From IMG/VR virus record IMGVR_UViG_3300037420_000429: 64,000 bases of DNA. One strand, 5' to 3'. The position numbers and the translations under genes were made by a program. Source of the stretch: a virus. Under the pieces are notes generated by a model. That model saw only the letters and a list, made by a program, of their open reading frames with translations, had not been told where the DNA came from and made no database searches. Positions within the stretch are counted from its first letter, which is position 1, and each line of letters starts with the position of its first letter. Positions 2,073 to 62,248 of this stretch are shown one piece after another.

Positions 2073-2447
2073 ATGAGTGAACTTGTACCAACAAAAGAAC
2101 AACCCGTGTTCAAAAAGACACATGAGCTTGCCAAGCTTGTTCGTGATCTTAAGAAGATTAGTAAGAAAGCTATTGAAGTGCTGGAGAAGGGCCTTGATAG
2201 CCAAGATGAGCGTGTACGTATGCTAGCTGCTGAAAAGCTGCTGAAATTCTACACAGATTCGGCTAAGGACGTGAATGAGGATGAGTTGAAGCGACTCCTG
2301 TTGGAAGTAAAGCTGAGGGGTATGGTGGGTGCGGGAAGCACTGCGCAGGATGACGAAGATACGCCAGCGTTGGATTTTGACAACATTTCTCCCGAATTTG
2401 CTCAAGATGTACAAGTCGTAGACATGGGTAACATAAATAAGATTTGA
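2073..2447 (+). CDS. hypothetical protein (124 aa); small-terminase candidate by position only
   Basis: TAAGGAGG RBS. Helical, charged protein and first gene of the late block. No diagnostic motif recognised. Confidence 0.6.
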   Translation: MSELVPTKEQPVFKKTHELAKLVRDLKKISKKAIEVLEKGLDSQDERVRMLAAEKLLKFYTDSAKDVNEDELKRLLLEVKLRGMVGAGSTAQDDEDTPALDFDNISPEFAQDVQVVDMGNINKI

Positions 2448-2472
2448 CAAGATTGCTTCAGTGTGCGATAAT
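2444..2472 (+). promoter_or_regulatory. sigma70-type promoter driving the non-coding island
   Basis: TTGACA 2444..2449, 17 nt, GATAAT 2467..2472. Overlaps the stop of the 2073 gene. Confidence 0.6.
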
Positions 2473-2478
2473 TCTTTT

Positions 2479-2637
2479 TGTTGAGGAAATCACGCAACGG
2501 CCCACGACTTAACCGGGTGCAGATTGTCAACAAATTGATCCGCCAGATAGCGTGCTATTGGCTCAGCCTTATGGTTGCATAGAGTATGCACTTAACTCTT
2601 ACAAGAATGTGCACTCGGCTTCGTAAGAAGCCGTTTT
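2479..2637 (+). ncRNA. candidate small structured RNA of about 155 nt (promoter to hairpin plus U-run)
   Basis: No ORF. Several local hairpins, e.g. TGCATA-gag-TATGCA at 2576..2590. Bounded by the promoter at 2444 and the terminator-like hairpin at 2616..2637. Confidence 0.3.
2616..2637 (+). terminator. terminator-like hairpin
   Basis: CGGCTTC-gtaa-GAAGCCG (7-bp stem, GNRA-type loop) followed by TTTT. Confidence 0.4.
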
Positions 2638-2716
2638 AGAAGGCATTCTTCTGCAATGACGCTGCCCCTCCTCGGAAGATTTGTGGGATTGAGTGCCTCC
2701 TAAAATAAAAGTTTCC

Positions 2717-2800
2717 GCCCCTTTCCCATAGTGGTTGATTGGAGCTGACCTGTAATCAGCCTGCGAAAGCACACCGTCCGTTCGAATCGGACAGGGGGCA
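2717..2800 (+). tRNA. type-II (long variable arm) tRNA-like gene with a Tyr-like scaffold and a non-canonical anticodon loop CCUGUAA
   Basis: Hand-folded cloverleaf of 84 nt, no encoded CCA. Acceptor GCCCCTT/AGGGGGC with one G-U pair, and U8. D stem is 3 bp (CCA/TGG) with an 11-nt loop containing GG. Anticodon stem is GCTGA/TCAGC. Variable arm is 15 nt with a TGC-GAAA-GCA hairpin. T arm is GTCCG-TTCGAAT-CGGAC. Discriminator is A. Confidence 0.6.
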
Positions 2801-2956
2801 TAAGAATCTGAAGGTCGCTACCTGAAGATCAAATCCTGCTTGCACAGGTTGACAGCCGGAAAGACGGCACTCAATGTAGAGCGAACCGTGTTGCAACACC
2901 TTCCACTGCTGTCTCAGTGGATAGCCTACACCAATAATATTCAGACAGGAATAAAA

Positions 2957-3523
2957 ATGGTAGATGATTTTAAAAATAGTGATGGCGAATGGGTACGCTC
3001 TTGCACTGTAGGTGGTAAGTCACACGCAACAAGGGCTTATATGTTGTACATGAGCTTGCTTGACCGTTGCAAACCCGGTGGAAAGTATCAATGTCGCAAT
3101 CCGAGTTATGTAGGTTGTAAATCAGAGTTTAGTGACTTTCAGCATTTTGCGGAGTGGTGTCATTCTCAGATTGGCTACTGCGTTGAAGACTTTCAGTTAG
3201 ATAAGGACTTACTCGGGGACGGTAAAACATATTCTTCCGAGTGCTGCGTATTTTTACCTAGAAAAATTAATTTGCTGTTGCAAAAGAAAACAAGGTTGGT
3301 GAACCTTCCGCAAGGTGTCTCCAAGAAATACAATAAATTCACAGCAGCTATCACTATCGATGGAAGAGTAAATTACCTTGGACTTTTTGATACGCAAGAA
3401 CAGGCGTTCTTAGCTTACAAAATCACTAAGGAGTCGGAAATAGGCAAAATAGCTGGTGCCTACGTGGACTATATCCCTGAACACTGTATGCTGAAATTAC
3501 TTACATACAGTGTGGAGCCTTGA
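2957..3523 (+). CDS. AP2-domain homing-endonuclease-like protein with a degenerate HNH_3-type core (LDKD); paralog of 51819..52619
   Basis: ATG 2957 after AGGAATAAAA. Motifs FAEWC, LDKDLL...CCVFLPRKIN and an AP2-like GVSKKYNKFTAAITIDGRVNYLGLFDTQEQAFLAY. AT-richer than its flanks. Confidence 0.65.
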   Translation: MVDDFKNSDGEWVRSCTVGGKSHATRAYMLYMSLLDRCKPGGKYQCRNPSYVGCKSEFSDFQHFAEWCHSQIGYCVEDFQLDKDLLGDGKTYSSECCVFLPRKINLLLQKKTRLVNLPQGVSKKYNKFTAAITIDGRVNYLGLFDTQEQAFLAYKITKESEIGKIAGAYVDYIPEHCMLKLLTYSVEP

Positions 3524-7132: not shown

Positions 7133-7888
7133 ATGGCTTACGTTTATTGGTTGCATCTGCCTGAACATTCTGATCCTAAATCAGAGGGTTATATTGGAAT
7201 TACTGGCGGAACAGTAGAGGACAGATTTGCTGAGCATGTCAGAAAAGCTAAAGGTAAAGGAAATCTGCACGTACATAACGCTATCAGGAAGTATGGGGAT
7301 CAGATAAAGGTGTCTGTACTTCACGAAGACTCAATTGAGTTCTGCGAATTACTTGAATGGGCCTACAGACCTCACCGTCAAATCGCATGGAATATTATGC
7401 CGGGTGGAAGCCCTTCTAGTATCGGTGTAGAAAAAGCAGAGGGTGCCAAGCTAAATATGCGGGATAAGGCGCGCAGAGGTGAGAGGCATCATTACTATGG
7501 TAAGAAGCTGTCTAAAGATCACGTCCAAAGAATGATCGAAAGCCGCAGAGGTCAAGTCAGGAGTGTTGAGCACTGTAAAAGCCTGTCTTCCGCCCTAACA
7601 GGTAGGGAATTTTCAGAGACTCACAAGGCTGCTATCAGTAAAGCCGCCAAAGCCAAACATCCGTGGCAAAACCCAACTTGTAATAAGCAGATTTGGGTAA
7701 AAGCAGATGAGATTTTTAATAAATACTCAGAAGGGCTGCGCGACTCTGCGTTGGCAAAAGCTTTTTCGGTGAACCACAACAAGATCGCCGCCTTGTCTAG
7801 AAAATTCAAGTCTGGTTGGATTCCGCAAGAAGACCCTGCATGGCTCCAGTTCAAGGAGCAATACTTAACGGAGCAAATGCATGAATAA
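7133..7888 (+). CDS. GIY-YIG homing endonuclease (free-standing)
   Basis: N-terminal YVYWL…GYIGIT…RFAEH…N motifs. Repeated NUMOD3-like helices (HHYYGKKLSKDH, SETHKAAISKA). Inserted between portal and protease. Confidence 0.8.
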   Translation: MAYVYWLHLPEHSDPKSEGYIGITGGTVEDRFAEHVRKAKGKGNLHVHNAIRKYGDQIKVSVLHEDSIEFCELLEWAYRPHRQIAWNIMPGGSPSSIGVEKAEGAKLNMRDKARRGERHHYYGKKLSKDHVQRMIESRRGQVRSVEHCKSLSSALTGREFSETHKAAISKAAKAKHPWQNPTCNKQIWVKADEIFNKYSEGLRDSALAKAFSVNHNKIAALSRKFKSGWIPQEDPAWLQFKEQYLTEQMHE

Positions 7889-37600: not shown

Positions 37601-40600
37601 TTACAATTTGCAGCTTTCGCAATCTGCTTCATCTTCTTCTAGCGTGAGGCCAGCTTTGCTATTGCTGTAGTAGCACGATTTATGGCCACACGTGATGCGA
37701 TAAAGCCAGTCTTCAAACATCTCCGTTGCACGAATCTTAGGTGTCACACCCGCAGGGAATGTACGGTACTTGTCTGCACTAATAGCTTGTCCACAAAACT
37801 TCTGGAAGATGCCGTACATTTCAGTAATATCTTTAGCAGGGACAGTCCATGCCAATTGATACGCATCTTCCAGTTCTTCCAAGTCTGGTGCAAGAAACAC
37901 GTTCTTGTTTGTACCGCTTGTCTTAACAACCACAAGCTCACGAACAGGGTATATGCTATTCGTAGTGTTGCCAGCAATGCTGCTCGACTCTACAGGCATG
38001 TATGCTTCAAGAACGCTGTTGCGCATGCCATGCTTTGCAATCTCCTTACGAAGCCCCTCCCAGTCGCACAGCAAAGGTTGATCCGTCACATTATCGATGT
38101 GTTTGCAGTACGTGTCAATAGGCAACCAACCATCTGCATACTTCGTCTTGTGGAACCAGTCGCATTTGCCACGCTCCTTAGCAAGACGCACACTAGCCTT
38201 GTGGAGCCAGTAAGAATGCATCTCAGCCAGTCGGTGCATGTAAGCTTTGCCCTCTGCCGTATCATATCGAAGCCCCTTAACAGCCATATCGTGTGCAAGG
38301 TTGGTAATACCAATACCAGCAGAACGTCGGGCTTGCGCAGTGTACTTCAAGTGTGGGAACGGATAGTCCATGATCGAAATCACGTTGTCAACCATCTTAA
38401 GTGTACGGTACGCCACTTCCTCATACATTTCAGGTATCACACGCCCTGCAACAATTGCACCTAGATTGCACAGACCAATCTCACCCTGCACATCGTCATC
38501 CATACGGTAAAGCTCTGTGACATCCTTGTAACCTTGAGTCGGCAATCCGATTTCTTGGCACTGTCCTGTCAAGATGCCATTGAACATCCCCATGTGACGC
38601 TTCGGTTCAGTGAAACAGTACGTGTCATCGTAACGACCTTCATCAACAACCTCAGTCACTTTGGTAAAGCGAGTACCATCTTGCCTTTCAGTTACACCAC
38701 TTACATCCAATCGCTTCGGACTAAACCCCAACGAAATCAATGTGTGAAGTCCACTGTTCCCGATATATAACGAGTAAGCGTCTTTGCAACTGTATCCGTG
38801 CTTTGCACCTGTCCCGTCATTCTTCGGCAACAGGATAACCCCTGCTTGTTTAGACAAACCAACACGCGACGGAACCCCTGTAGTTTGCAGCATAAGCTGG
38901 ATTTGCAGCAAAAACTTTTTGTTTACCGAAGTAAGATTCAATGCTTTTGCACCGTTATTTTCAGACACACAGCCGTCTGCATCCATGATGCCCTCCAGCC
39001 AAGAAATCCTAGACTGCACTGAAAAGGTTGCATCGGGCACAAAGAACTTTTGACGAAGCTTTTTTGTATAGCCGTAAGCCCTGTTTAGATCGGGCTGCAC
39101 CTTGACATTCTCTAGCAAATCGCCAAAAAGACTCATCAACGCCTGCTTTGCGCCGTAAAAATAAATCTTTTGCCGCCCGTCTTCAACAGAGCCATCACCA
39201 GAGAAAAACCCGTTTGCGTACGAGTTTTCAAGACTCTCACTACCATTCACGACGGGTAGTGATGCAGGCTTCACAAGACGGATTCCTGCTTTCAAGTCCT
39301 TGGCAGCAATCGGAGTCTTGATCCCCGGCAGGTAAAACTTATGCTCAGGTGTGCAGTGAATCGTTTGGCCTGCATCCGTCACAACCTTAATTAGTTTTAC
39401 ATTGTGCCCAGTTTGCTTAATCTGCACGTTAGACCACTCGGAGCCGTTCCAAACGTCAACAAACTTGTCAGTAACACTCACAATTGGTACATACCCTTTA
39501 GATGTCAGGATCAACGTTTCAGGTGCAACACACAGGTTGCTACTGTAGATTACGTCCTTGAAAGGGGTGTGCCTATTCATTTCGTAAGTGTTATGCTCGT
39601 ACATGCGCCCGGTTTCCTCTTGAATCCGCAGAAACTCTAATGCTAGCTTACGTGCCGGAATAAACTTCTTACGCTTACTACTCTTTTCATGCTCAGCATA
39701 CAGACGTTCAAAGCTTCCATCATCACGGTACATTGCCTCCCACAGATTAGGATTCACCTTATAGCTGATGTTCATCCACTGTTCATTCTTAGCAGCCTTC
39801 TCCGCAAGCAGAGGGTGGAAGCCAAAACTATAGTCAAGACGACGCTCTGCTTTCGATGCAACCGTTGTTGGGTGACGAAGGCGCAGCAACGTCTCAATCT
39901 CAGGATCAAGAGCGTTGATGTGCATCGTCTCTGCGCCGCCCCTACCGCCTTGCAAGTTGGCATTCACAGCACTTGCTTGTGCATTGTAGTACGGCAGCTT
40001 ACCGCCGTGGCGAATAGTATTCTTACGAACACCATCACCTTTACTGCGAGTCATCAACATGCCGCCAATGCCTGCACTGGAAGCCGTCATGATTGTGGCA
40101 ATGTGATCGCCAGCAGCCAAGCTTCCAAGCTCATCGTTGCTCTTGTAGACGCAGCAAGAGGCATACGTGCGTTTGGGGGTGCCAAGATTGTTAATGTTCG
40201 GCGTTGGTGCATTGATGCGCCCAGTTGCGAAATCTTCATAGAACTCTTGCACAGATTTCATGCGAGTTTCTTTAGGCTCATCCTTGCATACACCAAGAGC
40301 CATCCGCATCCACACAAATGCGGGCGACTCCAACACAATGTTCTTCTCGATGTCCTTGATAGCGTATTTGGTCGTGATCTGATTGACGACAGAGTAAACG
40401 CTATTCAGGTCACGCTCGTGGTTGATAAAGTCTTCAGCGAGACGAAGTTCTCCCCAAGAGTACTCCATTTCCTCCCACAAACCATCAGCCACCATCTTTG
40501 CGTACATGATGTGCACACTAGGAATCTTATCATGCCCACCAAACGCTTGCTTATACACATCGCCAATCAACAGACGACCTGCCATCAGCATATGCGGCGT

Positions 40601-40810
40601 ATCTTCATAATCCATGCAAGCTTGAATCATAGCCTGCTGCAAATCTTTCGTAGTGCAAGTGTCAGGTAGCTTCTTGTACGTGTCAGCAACAATGCCGAAC
40701 CAATCTACACCAATGTTACCTGCCCATTTAGCCCAACGAGTAAGCTTCTCAGGATCAAACGGGACAACAGAACCATCCCGCTTAGTAACCATAATATGCT
40801 TCTCAGTCAT
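37601..40810 (-). CDS. nrdA: ribonucleotide reductase class Ia large subunit, intein-containing precursor (1069 aa)
   Basis: N-terminal ATP-cone-like MVTKRDGSVVPFD. Catalytic motif SSNL|C…|CQEIGLPT is split by 324 aa. The conserved C-terminal half is present. Confidence 0.9.
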   Translation of the reverse strand: MTEKHIMVTKRDGSVVPFDPEKLTRWAKWAGNIGVDWFGIVADTYKKLPDTCTTKDLQQAMIQACMDYEDTPHMLMAGRLLIGDVYKQAFGGHDKIPSVHIMYAKMVADGLWEEMEYSWGELRLAEDFINHERDLNSVYSVVNQITTKYAIKDIEKNIVLESPAFVWMRMALGVCKDEPKETRMKSVQEFYEDFATGRINAPTPNINNLGTPKRTYASCCVYKSNDELGSLAAGDHIATIMTASSAGIGGMLMTRSKGDGVRKNTIRHGGKLPYYNAQASAVNANLQGGRGGAETMHINALDPEIETLLRLRHPTTVASKAERRLDYSFGFHPLLAEKAAKNEQWMNISYKVNPNLWEAMYRDDGSFERLYAEHEKSSKRKKFIPARKLALEFLRIQEETGRMYEHNTYEMNRHTPFKDVIYSSNLCVAPETLILTSKGYVPIVSVTDKFVDVWNGSEWSNVQIKQTGHNVKLIKVVTDAGQTIHCTPEHKFYLPGIKTPIAAKDLKAGIRLVKPASLPVVNGSESLENSYANGFFSGDGSVEDGRQKIYFYGAKQALMSLFGDLLENVKVQPDLNRAYGYTKKLRQKFFVPDATFSVQSRISWLEGIMDADGCVSENNGAKALNLTSVNKKFLLQIQLMLQTTGVPSRVGLSKQAGVILLPKNDGTGAKHGYSCKDAYSLYIGNSGLHTLISLGFSPKRLDVSGVTERQDGTRFTKVTEVVDEGRYDDTYCFTEPKRHMGMFNGILTGQCQEIGLPTQGYKDVTELYRMDDDVQGEIGLCNLGAIVAGRVIPEMYEEVAYRTLKMVDNVISIMDYPFPHLKYTAQARRSAGIGITNLAHDMAVKGLRYDTAEGKAYMHRLAEMHSYWLHKASVRLAKERGKCDWFHKTKYADGWLPIDTYCKHIDNVTDQPLLCDWEGLRKEIAKHGMRNSVLEAYMPVESSSIAGNTTNSIYPVRELVVVKTSGTNKNVFLAPDLEELEDAYQLAWTVPAKDITEMYGIFQKFCGQAISADKYRTFPAGVTPKIRATEMFEDWLYRITCGHKSCYYSNSKAGLTLEEDEADCESCKL
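38561..39532 (-). mobile_element. intein with a LAGLIDADG homing endonuclease domain, inserted at the catalytic-Cys motif of NrdA
   Basis: aa 427-750. Starts CVAPETLILT. LAGLIDADG motifs NGFFSGDGSV and LEGIMDADGCV. Ends …FNGILTGQ, followed by Cys+1. The spliced sequence restores SNLCQEIGLPT. Confidence 0.85.
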
Positions 40811-44131: not shown

Positions 44132-44746
44132 TCATGTAATTTTTTCGACGCCATGATGATCGGTATACCCCGCACCTTGCTCTTGTAATCTTTTTATGGC
44201 ATCTGTTCTCCACTCTACAGCCCTACGGAAAGCCTCATCTCTACCGAGAACGTCTATGGAAAATTGTTTTCTTACTTGTTTTCCACCGGGGATGGTGTAG
44301 TATGCGCACCAAACTTCGTGAACCTTCGTCGGCCAATCGAATCTCCTATATGTAACACCAGTGACGCCTGAAGAGTTTTGTGGACGAAGTTTTACATTTC
44401 TAGAATTGACAGCTTTTGTGACTATACGTAAGTTTGATAATTGGTTATCCGCAGTATCCCAATTAATATGGTCTACAAGTTCGTCTTTTGCAAGAGGTCT
44501 TCCTAGTTGCATTTCTAGTACGATTCTGTGCACTTTAAAACTTCTACTTCTAACAAACACTACCCAGTAACCTTTTGTGTCGATATGGCCTGCAACATCT
44601 CCTTCTTTTCTCTCCACTGCACGCCCACTTTTAGATGGTTTGGGCCTATAATGCCACCTCAACCCGGAAGGGCTGGCTGGGTCAAGATAAAACTCAGGCC
44701 AACCTTTGTAGGATTCGCAGCACTGCTTCTCTTCTTCCTTTTGCAT
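44132..44746 (-). CDS. HNH_3 plus AP2-domain homing endonuclease (free-standing)
   Basis: DELVDHINWDTADNQLSNLRIVT (HNH_3), then SGVTGVTYRR…WCAYY…LGRDEAFRRAVEWR (AP2-like). Start set at ATG 44746 after AGGAAGGG. Overlaps the upstream gene by 53 nt. Confidence 0.8.
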   Translation of the reverse strand: MQKEEEKQCCESYKGWPEFYLDPASPSGLRWHYRPKPSKSGRAVERKEGDVAGHIDTKGYWVVFVRSRSFKVHRIVLEMQLGRPLAKDELVDHINWDTADNQLSNLRIVTKAVNSRNVKLRPQNSSGVTGVTYRRFDWPTKVHEVWCAYYTIPGGKQVRKQFSIDVLGRDEAFRRAVEWRTDAIKRLQEQGAGYTDHHGVEKIT

Positions 44747-45254
44747 TTTGTAACCCTTCCTCATTCTCTCCACGCTCTAGGCAATACCTTTTCACCTCCG
44801 GTATTGGTAATTTGCAGATATTGATAACTTGTTTGTCAATCTTAGCCTCTTCAAAAGACATGCCCGTGTTTTGTGCGTGGCTGACAACAGAGTGACATGC
44901 AGTACAGAGCGGACGAATTGAGTCATAGTCAATCAGGAACAAGTGCTTCATGTACTCTTCGGCATCAGAGAATTTAGTGAACGTTCCGCTGTCGCCTTTA
45001 TGGTCGATCTGGATGTCAGCTTGTACAGTGTCAACTTTGCAGATATCGCAAGTCATACCCCAACACTCGGGAAAACGTTTAGCACTCTTTGCATTAGGAT
45101 TCTTAATGCGCTTACGAAACCTATTGATAAACTCAATTTTGATGGGGTGAACTTTCCAACCCTTACGAAGCACACCACGAATCCAGTTCATAAAAGCTGC
45201 CTCAGTCTTCCACGGGCTTCCTTCGCACAGCCACGGTTTACGGCTTGTAGACAT
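44694..45254 (-). CDS. HNH-type (CxxC…H…CxxCH) endonuclease-domain protein
   Basis: Start at ATG 45254 (MSTSRKPW…), overlapping the upstream stop region. Motifs CDIC…IQIDHKGD…LCTACH. Confidence 0.6.
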   Translation of the reverse strand: MSTSRKPWLCEGSPWKTEAAFMNWIRGVLRKGWKVHPIKIEFINRFRKRIKNPNAKSAKRFPECWGMTCDICKVDTVQADIQIDHKGDSGTFTKFSDAEEYMKHLFLIDYDSIRPLCTACHSVVSHAQNTGMSFEEAKIDKQVINICKLPIPEVKRYCLERGENEEGLQNAKGRREAVLRILQRLA

Positions 45255-61660: not shown

Positions 61661-62248
61661 TTAAGTTCCGTGCCGGTCTGTAAAACCTGCATCAAGTGTT
61701 GTTAAGTAGTTCATATGTTGATTCCTGCGCTCGCACGCCTGTTTAAAAGCATTATCATAACCTAATTTAGATATCGAAAAATGCTCTCGCCTAGTCTTCT
61801 GTGCGTCATGGTCGTAGATAAGAGCAACGAAATATTCAAAAACTTTGCCTTTTATTACTTTTACGTCCTTAACAACACCAGTTACGCCTGTTTTGTTATT
61901 GGATTGTTTAGCTTTGTTTTTCTGGTTCGTACTGCCTGTGACAAGTCGTAGATTGCTAATGCGATTATCTGTTTTATCCCCATTTATATGATCAATCTGC
62001 AAACCATCTTCTTTAATAAGGCCATTAAACAGTTGATAAACAATACGATGAATAGAGTACAACCTCCCCCTCATATTCACATAGTAATATCCAGTAGACT
62101 TTACAAGACCACCAGCCGGTTCGTCTTTGCACCTCGATCTTACAGACATGTTCCAACCCGTCCAACAGTCATCTTTCCACCGAATAAAAGTTGGGCATGT
62201 TTCGTCGTAGTAAACCTCAGATAAGACTGGACTATAATCGACCGGCAT
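61661..62248 (-). CDS. HNH_3 plus AP2-domain homing endonuclease (free-standing)
   Basis: GLQIDHINGDKTDNRISNLRLVT, then KTGVTGVVKD…ALIYD…LGYDNAFKQACERR. Splits the paralog trio. Confidence 0.8.
   Translation of the reverse strand: MPVDYSPVLSEVYYDETCPTFIRWKDDCWTGWNMSVRSRCKDEPAGGLVKSTGYYYVNMRGRLYSIHRIVYQLFNGLIKEDGLQIDHINGDKTDNRISNLRLVTGSTNQKNKAKQSNNKTGVTGVVKDVKVIKGKVFEYFVALIYDHDAQKTRREHFSISKLGYDNAFKQACERRNQHMNYLTTLDAGFTDRHGT

Follow-up and report, generated by a model that had tools for sequence, protein, structure and literature searches.

A putative long-arm tRNA-Thr(UGU) gene with C33 in a tailed phage, and the widespread phage family to which it belongs

Introduction

By the textbook account, long variable arms in bacteria belong only to the tRNAs for leucine, serine, tyrosine and selenocysteine. 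Class-II-shaped tRNAs with class-I anticodons are known as nematode nev-tRNAs and bacterial allo-tRNAs, which are reported to be charged with leucine or serine regardless of the anticodon, the allo-tRNAs having an 8/4 or 9/3 acceptor/T geometry. Here we analyse a predicted phage tRNA gene that combines a long variable arm with the threonine anticodon UGU and with C at the near-universal U33 position. The gene lies in IMG/VR virus record IMGVR_UViG_3300037420_000429, of which the whole stretch of 64,000 nt was analysed and is called the window below; the loci and contigs compared with it carry L numbers.

The closest genes in cultured phages are the 87-nt genes of the T5-like phages Lindwurm (OK143207) and HildyBeyeler (Bas33, MZ501074), with counterparts in about 100 more Demerecviridae records, and those of 83-84 nt in Sinorhizobium phage phiM12 and Pseudomonas phage vB_PpS_SYP; phiM12-like phages and Aeromonas phage Ah1 are further carriers. 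In the databases these genes are labelled plain 'tRNA-Thr' or are unannotated. We found no paper describing a class-II-shaped tRNA-Thr or its long arm, in a literature coverage that was incomplete and did not extend to older T5 tRNA sequencing, and the family apparently is undescribed so far.

Several T5 tRNAs serve in counter-defence, those for lysine, threonine and asparagine against PARIS and that for tyrosine against retron Ec78 (PMC12409363, PMC11555353), and the window gene resembles them in belonging to a nuclease-targeted isoacceptor. In E. coli the targets of the PARIS nuclease AriB are tRNA-Lys(UUU) and tRNA-Thr(UGU) and, as a secondary substrate, tRNA-Asn(GUU), with the cut within U36AAUCA41, between C40 and A41 (PMC12409363). 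T5 tRNA-Lys alone rescues Bas33 from PARIS, and this tRNA stays uncleaved even with the AriB site restored, which means that AriB reads distal features as well (PMC12409363).

Results

ARAGORN finds one tRNA in the 64-kb window, a tRNA-Thr with anticodon tgt at position 35, and the full order of the gene is GCCCCUU-UC-CCA-UAGUGGUUGAU-UGG-A-GCUGA-CCUGUAA-UCAGC-CUGCGAAAGCACACC-GUCCG-UUCGAAU-CGGAC-AGGGGGC-A (2717-2800, +; Table 1). The acceptor stem has seven base pairs with a single U6-G67 wobble and includes G1-C72, C2-G71, C4-G69 and C5-G68; the D stem consists of C10-G25, C11-G24 and A12-U23 beneath an 11-nt loop; the anticodon and T stems have five pairs each, the anticodon loop has 7 nt, and the gene ends with A73 and does not encode CCA. 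U8, A14, G18G19, A21, the T loop UUCGAAU and a purine at position 37 are all present, and they are (nearly) invariant across the family alignment described below. The canonical U33 of the U-turn is the element that is missing. The acceptor/T geometry is 7/5, with covariation behind it, and not the 8/4, 9/3 or 8/5 of allo-tRNA or tRNA-Sec-like molecules. The minimum free energy of the gene strand is -34.8 kcal/mol (z = -3.2; equalled by 0 of 200 shuffles), and in the single-sequence minimum free energy fold the D and anticodon arms are not paired as in the cloverleaf. Judged from its sequence, the segment is a real phage tRNA gene. The cloverleaf set out in a preliminary description of this DNA thus holds in every detail and is recovered by ARAGORN at identical coordinates with a 7-nt loop, as does its conventional reading as a UGU tRNA with C33 and a long arm foreign to cellular threonine tRNAs.

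A family pattern was assembled from the positions common to the window gene and its relatives in L006 and L001, with long-arm spacing enforced: U8-C9-(G/C)CA-UAG..GGU.GAU-UG(C/G)-A26, a hairpin variable arm of 13-17 nt and the anticodon UGU, all of which the window gene has. The pattern occurs in IMG/VR at 117 loci or more, with 73 distinct sequences among the matches listed; further scans brought the working set to 80 distinct members and the covariation alignment to 83 sequences. A simple pairing filter was failed by 2 of 81 pattern-defined sites, and selection bias is therefore small. In the alignment, standard pairs fill 98.7% of pair cells, compared with 66% after shuffling and at most 45.5% when partners were slid, and 21 of 23 pairs change on both sides. 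All five helices covary: all seven acceptor pairs do so and are 100% paired, pair 10-25 is GC in 69 sequences and CG in 13, and the three pairs of the variable-arm stem, which were never used as a selection filter, all covary and are 94% paired. The T stem is 99.5% paired across the family. Among the 80 members the D stem is GCA/TGC in 66 and CCA/TGG in 13, the variable arm is 14-17 nt long, and CCA is not encoded in 51.

We then scored individual genes with R1, a covariance model of 40 members from which the window gene and its L006 homologue were excluded. The window gene reached 90.2 bits (E about 2e-24), L006 91.4, L001 79.1, phiM12 73.6 and vB_PpS_SYP 72.5 bits, with the cultured long-arm genes spanning 72.5-84.3 bits (the highest being Lindwurm, which is in the R1 training set), whereas the best non-family scores were 56.3 bits for Tyr, 55.5 for Leu and 54.4 for Ser, and class-I Thr genes did not exceed 48.6 bits. 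The cultured genes share with the window gene the class-II shape, UGU, G1-C72/C2-G71 and a 3-bp D stem; they are about 70-75% identical to it and, unlike it, have U33 and an encoded CCA. The complete genomes of E. coli contain no copy of the T5-like long-arm gene. On these comparisons the window gene belongs, with a full score, to a long-arm tRNA-Thr(UGU) family that is widespread among phages, and the long arm is a conserved architecture of this family, not a remnant of a tyrosine tRNA.

Like E. coli tRNA-Tyr, the window gene has a long arm, a 3-bp D stem, G1-C72 and A73, and the preliminary description had accordingly considered a tyrosine scaffold whose GUA is displaced by one base. This reading is not borne out by the homologues. 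The 83-nt genes of L006, L012 and L018 have the same D arm, acceptor and CUGCGAGAGCACAC variable arm with the loop CUUGUAA; the window gene differs from L006 at 14 positions, 8 of which make up four compensatory swaps in the anticodon and T stems, both of the pair swaps in the T arm being compensatory. U33-U34-G35-U36 stands in register in all 79 other members of the 80-member set, the window gene being the exception at position 33; the scaffold gives UGU with U33 in 46/46 distinct sequences when the anticodon is left free in the scan, and UGU stands in the standard register in every one of the long-arm relatives from viral contigs, of which at least 84 are distinct. The exact 17-mer GCUGA-CCUGUAA-UCAGC is present in 39 other viral contigs, nearly all of them in class-I tRNA-Thr(UGU) genes (71-76 nt, about 20 distinct sequences), and the corresponding arm of E. 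coli thrU is ACUGA-CUUGUAA-UCAGU. Because the nearest homologue has CUUGUAA and the same arm is found in class-I Thr genes, the window loop C32-C33-U34-G35-U36-A37-A38 is, by sequence comparison, the canonical Thr(UGU) loop with a single U33-to-C change.

No homologue with GUA or with an intermediate or shifted loop was seen in the long-arm family. Tyrosine tRNAs differ in having the anticodon GUA and, in phages, G2-C71 and always A73, as opposed to the C2-G71 and mostly U73 of the long-arm family. We thus reject a register-shifted tyrosine origin, given the L006 loop, the invariant in-register UGU and the Thr-type acceptor end; specific descent from Tyr is likewise unsupported, with Tyr, Leu and Ser scoring alike against the family model (54-56 bits). 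Among the three explanations offered earlier, that of an unusual isoacceptor comes closest, although what is unusual is the architecture and not the register; a decaying tRNA and a non-decoding RNA are less probable. One caveat concerns the scaffold, which is not strictly exclusive to UGU: two long-arm Gly(UCC) genes share its D arm and differ at position 26, and it is because of this position that the free-anticodon scan was blind to them.

The comparison with tRNA genes of related phages that had been proposed earlier places Thr(UGU) at one genomic position. Retrieval by the large terminase (TerL) yielded 18 related viral contigs with a Thr(UGU) gene at the same spot upstream of the terminase. 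Between relatives at 85-98% TerL identity, the gene at this place is either long-arm (the window, L006, L001) or class-I (L002, L007, L011, L013), and the place of the 87-nt long-arm gene of Lindwurm and HildyBeyeler is taken in T5 by a class-I 75-nt gene. These synteny data indicate that the two types of Thr(UGU) gene, long-arm and class-I, are interchangeable at a single locus, T5-like phages included. Class-I phage Thr(UGU) genes, that of T5 among them, share with the long-arm genes the anticodon, the acceptor signature and the genomic slot (and their C33 group also the 17-nt anticodon arm), but have a 4-5-nt variable loop, a 4-bp D stem and the low R1 scores given above. The two forms are not always alternatives, since 11 of 154 loci have a long-arm gene beside a class-I Thr(UGU) gene in the same tRNA cluster.

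For the amino-acid identity of the window tRNA we compared acceptor ends of tRNA groups within the same contigs. Long-arm Thr(UGU) genes have G1-C72 in 80/84 and C2-G71 in 82/84, with U73 in 77 and A73 in 6, and U73 is present in 73 of the 80 members of the working set. Class-I Thr(UGU) genes show the same pairs (13/14 each; U73 in 8, A73 in 5). Tyr(GUA) genes have G1-C72 in 22/23, mostly G2-C71, and A73 in 23/23; Ser(UGA) genes have G1-C72 in 28/31, G2-C71 in 31/31, and G73 (17) or U73 (13); and in Leu(UAA) genes G1-C72 is found in 4/22, pair 2-71 is mixed and A73 is universal (22/22).

The known bacterial threonine determinants are G1-C72, C2-G71, G4-C69, G5-C68, G34, G35 and U36, whereas position 73 is not a strong one, and C2-G71 acts as an antideterminant for seryl-tRNA synthetase (SerRS) (PMC9976931). 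Tyrosine requires A73, G34 and U35, E. coli leucine A73 and A15-U48, and serine G73, G2-C71 and a large variable region, with the anticodon being ignored by leucyl-tRNA synthetase (LeuRS) and SerRS (PMC9976931). Of the threonine elements, G1-C72, C2-G71, G35 and U36 are all present in the window tRNA; pairs 4-69 and 5-68 vary freely across the long-arm family, and the short class-I variable loop of bacterial threonine tRNAs is replaced by the 15-nt hairpin. The tyrosine set fails at the anticodon (A73 is present, but with U34 G35 U36), the serine set at A73 and C2-G71, so that the long arm alone matches, and the leucine set at G15 and C48 despite A73. A synthetase that reads the anticodon, such as threonyl-tRNA synthetase (ThrRS), would be expected to keep it invariant, whereas one that ignores it would not. 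On this pattern of elements, threonine is most likely the amino acid with which the window tRNA would be charged. The 7/5 geometry and the Thr-type acceptor elements also set the long-arm family apart from nev-tRNAs and allo-tRNAs.

We next examined the distribution of C33. No long-arm copy with C33 other than that of the window was found in IMG/VR, and two unrelated long-arm cases occur in metagenomes (L389, L390). In class-I phage Thr(UGU) genes with the same stem, C33 is present at 39 loci versus U33 at 120 or more, and the C33 genes are often the sole UGU Thr gene of their fetched tRNA cluster. A search of 185,579 species genomes with the C33 17-mer gave 57 matches, only about 17 of which lie in tRNA genes, 13 of these in one Acidobacteriaceae clade; three scanned Acidobacteriaceae loci are arrays of 20-31 tRNA genes, and two of them also hold an 88-nt Lys(UUU) gene. 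With cellular carriers so few and mostly from one clade, C33 as a host-typical feature was rejected. We also rejected C33 as a general nuclease-escape change, because U33C leaves cleavage by gamma-toxin of its substrate unaffected; an eLife paper on anticodon-loop escape mutations mentions neither Thr nor position 33.

N6-threonylcarbamoyladenosine at position 37 (t6A37) normally prevents a U33-A37 cross-loop pair, and C33 reportedly acts as an anti-determinant of t6A37 synthesis in bacteria (PMC9654439); C33 may make t6A37 dispensable and at the same time keep the tRNA from acquiring it. Yeast tRNA-Leu(GAG) has a natural C33 at minimal functional cost (PMC13492127). It resembles the window tRNA in carrying C for U33 in an otherwise normal, functional elongator tRNA, and differs in being eukaryotic, in belonging to another codon family and in being t6A37-independent. 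Since C33 recurs in class-I phage Thr genes and the yeast tRNA works, C33 is compatible with function and does not in itself point to decay, and it is probably tolerated in the window tRNA.

Two side observations concern the C33 arm. Amber suppressor tRNAs (anticodon CUA) adjoin C33 Thr genes at L047:1005-1080 and L054:6279-6354 (-), which suggests that these are stop-codon-recoded phages. In addition, the 17-mer recurs in a non-tRNA context, roughly GGGAAgAgtGTaTCaAtgAC(A/G)C-GCTGACCTGTAATCAGC-GG, in metagenome-assembled genomes of Clostridia, Ruminococcus, Syntrophorhabdus and Treponema (L182, L184, L202, L206, L220, L225), suggestive of some conserved structured RNA or leader.

Long arms are not confined to threonine isoacceptors. 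Among 168 viral loci retrieved through either terminase similarity or long-arm patterns, a biased sample in which most loci were chosen for long-arm Thr, ARAGORN reports hairpin variable arms in 10/42 distinct Asn(GUU) sequences, 9/53 Pro(UGG), 4/46 Lys(UUU), 3/10 Lys(CUU), 3/19 Ile(UAU) and 3/54 Gly(UCC). Each long-arm non-Thr isoacceptor retains its own cognate discriminator and acceptor pattern, and the two Gly(UCC) genes that have the D arm of the Thr family also have the full bacterial Gly identity set. These sequences argue that the long arm is an addition that does not depend on which amino acid a tRNA stands for. A full transfer-messenger RNA gene (2950-3286, -; 117 bits) also lies in the tRNA cluster of one viral contig, L235.

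The window derives from a tailed phage. A PhoH-like gene (-) is followed on the plus strand by genes for an HNH endonuclease, large terminase, portal and major head protein and by a 1861-aa tape measure gene (+), and a replication block (-) encodes a ribonucleotide reductase that contains an intein, as well as a DnaB-like helicase. Near and distant searches of deposited phages gave no DNA match to the window region, and the best cultured TerL relative is 42% identical. Pfam scans of 20 window proteins revealed no tRNA-repair, CCA-adding or tRNA-modification gene. Upstream of the tRNA gene lie a strong sigma-70-like site, a candidate promoter of its transcript, and a leader of about 170 nt that the window shares with L006, L001 and L002, also across different types of Thr tRNA; the four sequences hint at a hairpin, here a candidate structure. 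Downstream, the window sequence from about 2804 equals that following tRNA-Gly(UCC) in L002. The relatives have Thr and Gly(UCC) genes, some with Ser(GCU) or another tRNA after Thr, and the identity at the junction therefore implies that one or more downstream tRNA genes were lost from the window.

Selfish elements are frequent in this phage, which has a LAGLIDADG intein in its ribonucleotide reductase large subunit and at least four genes for HNH or homing endonucleases; in its relative L006, a group I intron lies within the terminase gene (L006:6070-6279; Rfam, 78.6 bits). A further observation concerns toxSAS FaRel2, which disables tRNA-Gly and tRNA-Thr via G1-C72, C2-G71, G4-C69 and Pu5-Py68 (PMC11245113). 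L002, L006, L007 and L011 hold exactly a Thr and Gly tRNA pair, the pair that FaRel2 targets, and the window Thr tRNA, with C4-G69 and C5-G68, would miss two FaRel2 determinants.

Table 1. Locations of the predicted tRNA gene, its parts and its surroundings in the window, and of related features at other loci (L numbers)
Feature	Location	Strand	Basis or remark
Complete 84-nt class-II-shaped tRNA gene, anticodon UGU, A73 at 2800	2717-2800	+	ARAGORN, model R1, sequence
Acceptor stem 5' strand GCCCCUU (partner AGGGGGC, 2793-2799)	2717-2723	+	sequence
D arm: CCA (10-12), loop UAGUGGUUGAU, UGG (23-25)	2726-2742	+	signature CAUAG..GGU.GAUUG
Anticodon arm GCUGA-CCUGUAA-UCAGC	2744-2760	+	sequence
C33 at near-universal U33 position	2750	+	sequence
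Anticodon UGU (reads ACA), then A37, A38	2751-2753	+	ARAGORN
15-nt variable arm C-UGC-GAAA-GCA-CACC: 3-bp stem UGC/GCA, GAAA cap	2761-2775	+	sequence, covariation
T arm GUCCG-UUCGAAU-CGGAC	2776-2792	+	sequence
Sigma-70-like candidate promoter TTGACA-17-(TG)GATAAT, about 245 nt upstream of tRNA	2444-2472	+	consensus scan, 11/12 matches
Conserved leader with invariant UGCCCCUCCUC, possible long hairpin	2545-2716	+	directly upstream of tRNA
Junction region after tRNA	2801-2860	+	alignment with L002
Selfish elements of the window	37601-40810 (-); 2957-3523 (+); 7133-7888 (+); 44132-44773 (-); 61661-62248 (-)		
Side-by-side long-arm/class-I Thr(UGU) pairs	L358:4924-5095; L346:4458-4629; L261:1867-2153; 8 more loci; also L390		
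Long-arm non-Thr examples	L241:779-866; L380:7450-7535 (-); L253:3070-3168; L258:3605-3691 (-); L297:4218-4304		
C33-arm loci	L019-L057 (viral); L189, L217, L228 and ten more (Acidobacteriaceae); L178, L194, L210, L219		

Discussion

Our preferred explanation, with a probability of about 0.68, is that the window gene encodes a functional elongator tRNA of the long-arm UGU family that is charged with threonine and decodes ACA. Its transcript would start at the upstream promoter, be processed and receive CCA from the host enzyme; host ThrRS would recognise it through G1-C72, C2-G71, G35 and U36; and the charged tRNA would decode ACA, the commonest threonine codon of the phage, which makes up 36% of its Thr codons and 38% of those in structural genes (34.6 per 1000 codons there). 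Given this demand and the upstream promoter, codon supply would be a sufficient role. C33 is a single lineage-specific change from U and, by published rules, would block t6A37 formation by the bacterial TsaD-TsaB-TsaE enzyme. Expression, threonine charging, a counter-defence role and the effect of C33 are all things that we infer.

The long arm might in addition let the phage tRNA escape a host inactivator of ordinary tRNA-Thr(UGU), such as AriB of PARIS, while leaving recognition by ThrRS intact. Thr(UGU) is a prime AriB target in E. coli, so that a counter-defence role of the long arm is plausible. In Bas33 the only Thr tRNA is long-armed, with an intact UAAUCA site, and its Asn(GUU) gene is long-armed as well (86 nt; MZ501074 73550-73635, L392:23550-23635). 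The rescue of Bas33 from PARIS would fit a long-arm Thr tRNA that decodes and survives AriB, although it is no proof of one.

We also considered a broader idea, which we regard as rather unlikely, namely that phages repeatedly graft a class-II arm onto tRNAs whose cognate identity is kept, as a means of evading AriB-like enzymes, with C33 as a second escape or bypass. Grafting would have affected Thr(UGU) above all, but also Asn(GUU), Lys, Pro and Gly, the AriB targets being Lys(UUU), Thr(UGU) and Asn(GUU). With the arm, the phage copies would be poorly accepted by host defence enzymes that target tRNAs, and C33 would remove the U33-A37 pairing problem together with the dependence on t6A37.

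Several observations weigh against a functional threonine elongator with a protective arm. The Rfam model RF00005 has no match on the window tRNA at any threshold; it gives homologues 47.6-60.9 bits (53.7 for L006), and the missing match on the window copy looks like a tool or filter artefact. The window tRNA has C4-G69 and C5-G68, not the G4-C69 and G5-C68 listed for threonine, and its A73 is the Tyr/Leu discriminator in a family that mostly has U73. C33 in the long-arm family amounts to three independent cases among more than 85 distinct members and is absent from the nearest relatives of the window, and loss of t6A37 through C33 could weaken the decoding of ANN codons. The tRNA cluster of the window is eroding, since one or more neighbouring tRNA genes are gone. 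Finally, the AriB recognition sequence is kept: the window and Bas33 both have U36-A-A-U39-C40-A41, unlike T5 tRNA-Lys, whose escape lies in anticodon-stem substitutions at 39 and 41, and escape by the window tRNA, if any, would thus have to rely on other parts of the molecule.

Some of these points could mean that the gene is decaying, a pseudogene or crippled descendant of a functional ancestor in which U33-to-C damages the loop while the tRNA cluster is being lost. We consider this improbable. The rarity of C33 in the family and its singularity among close relatives, the deletion of Gly(UCC) and other neighbours and the lack of an encoded CCA would all suit such a history, but the stems are all perfect, none of their differences from L006 is left uncompensated, and the R1 score matches that of this U33 homologue. 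The same C33 arm has been kept by many class-I Thr genes of phages that are otherwise diverged and by 13 species of Acidobacteriaceae, C33 barely affects the yeast tRNA (PMC13492127), CCA is absent from most of the family so that its absence here means little, and ACA is the codon for which the phage would need the tRNA most often among those for threonine.

Misincorporation or recoding, in which the class-II shape and A73 recruit TyrRS (tyrosyl-tRNA synthetase), LeuRS or SerRS so that ACA codons are in part read as Tyr, Leu or Ser, or in a variant a shifted GUA register is read, is harder still to reconcile with the data, and we give it little credence. The long arm of bacterial tRNA-Tyr combines a short stem with several unpaired bases on its 3' side, and the window arm (3-bp stem, 3-4 unpaired) resembles it; A73 and G1-C72 are present, the top non-family R1 matches are Tyr, Leu and Ser, and an anticodon would be no obstacle to LeuRS and SerRS (PMC9976931). 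Each of the three synthetases would nevertheless meet the mismatches described above (U34 G35 for Tyr, A73 with the SerRS antideterminant C2-G71 for Ser, G15 and C48 for Leu), and A73 itself is atypical of a family with U73. The invariant anticodon, an acceptor signature like that of class-I Thr genes, the interchange with these genes at one locus and the lack of any homologue with GUA or a shifted loop point the same way, as do the long-arm Asn, Lys, Pro and Gly genes of the same contigs, which keep cognate discriminators.

Least probable of all is a non-decoding tRNA-like RNA, which would soak up a tRNA-targeting host enzyme as a decoy or sponge, or else serve as primer or regulator, for although some viral tRNAs might act beyond translation rescue (PMC12409363), the side-by-side loci hint at non-redundant roles and the AriB recognition sequence is retained, the features conserved here are ones that only translation uses (G18G19, UUCGAAU, A37, the 7/5 geometry, the Thr acceptor pairs and the anticodon), and the long-arm gene is the only Thr(UGU) gene found in many phages, among them Bas33 and that of the window.

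Taking the window gene as a threonine elongator tRNA of the long-arm family, we see consequences for annotation, where long-arm Thr genes have been labelled plain 'tRNA-Thr' or missed, and for synthetic biology, where the family suggests that a class-I identity may tolerate a class-II body. If the tRNA were mischarged instead, it would amount to a natural device for recoding sense codons. For the phages themselves, a covarying and widespread family carries a long arm on a threonine-type tRNA, the sole Thr tRNA of Bas33 included. If the arm shields these tRNAs from anticodon-arm nucleases, it would constitute a new, structure-based route of counter-defence, and such protection, if true, could explain why AriB needs contacts outside its cleavage site.

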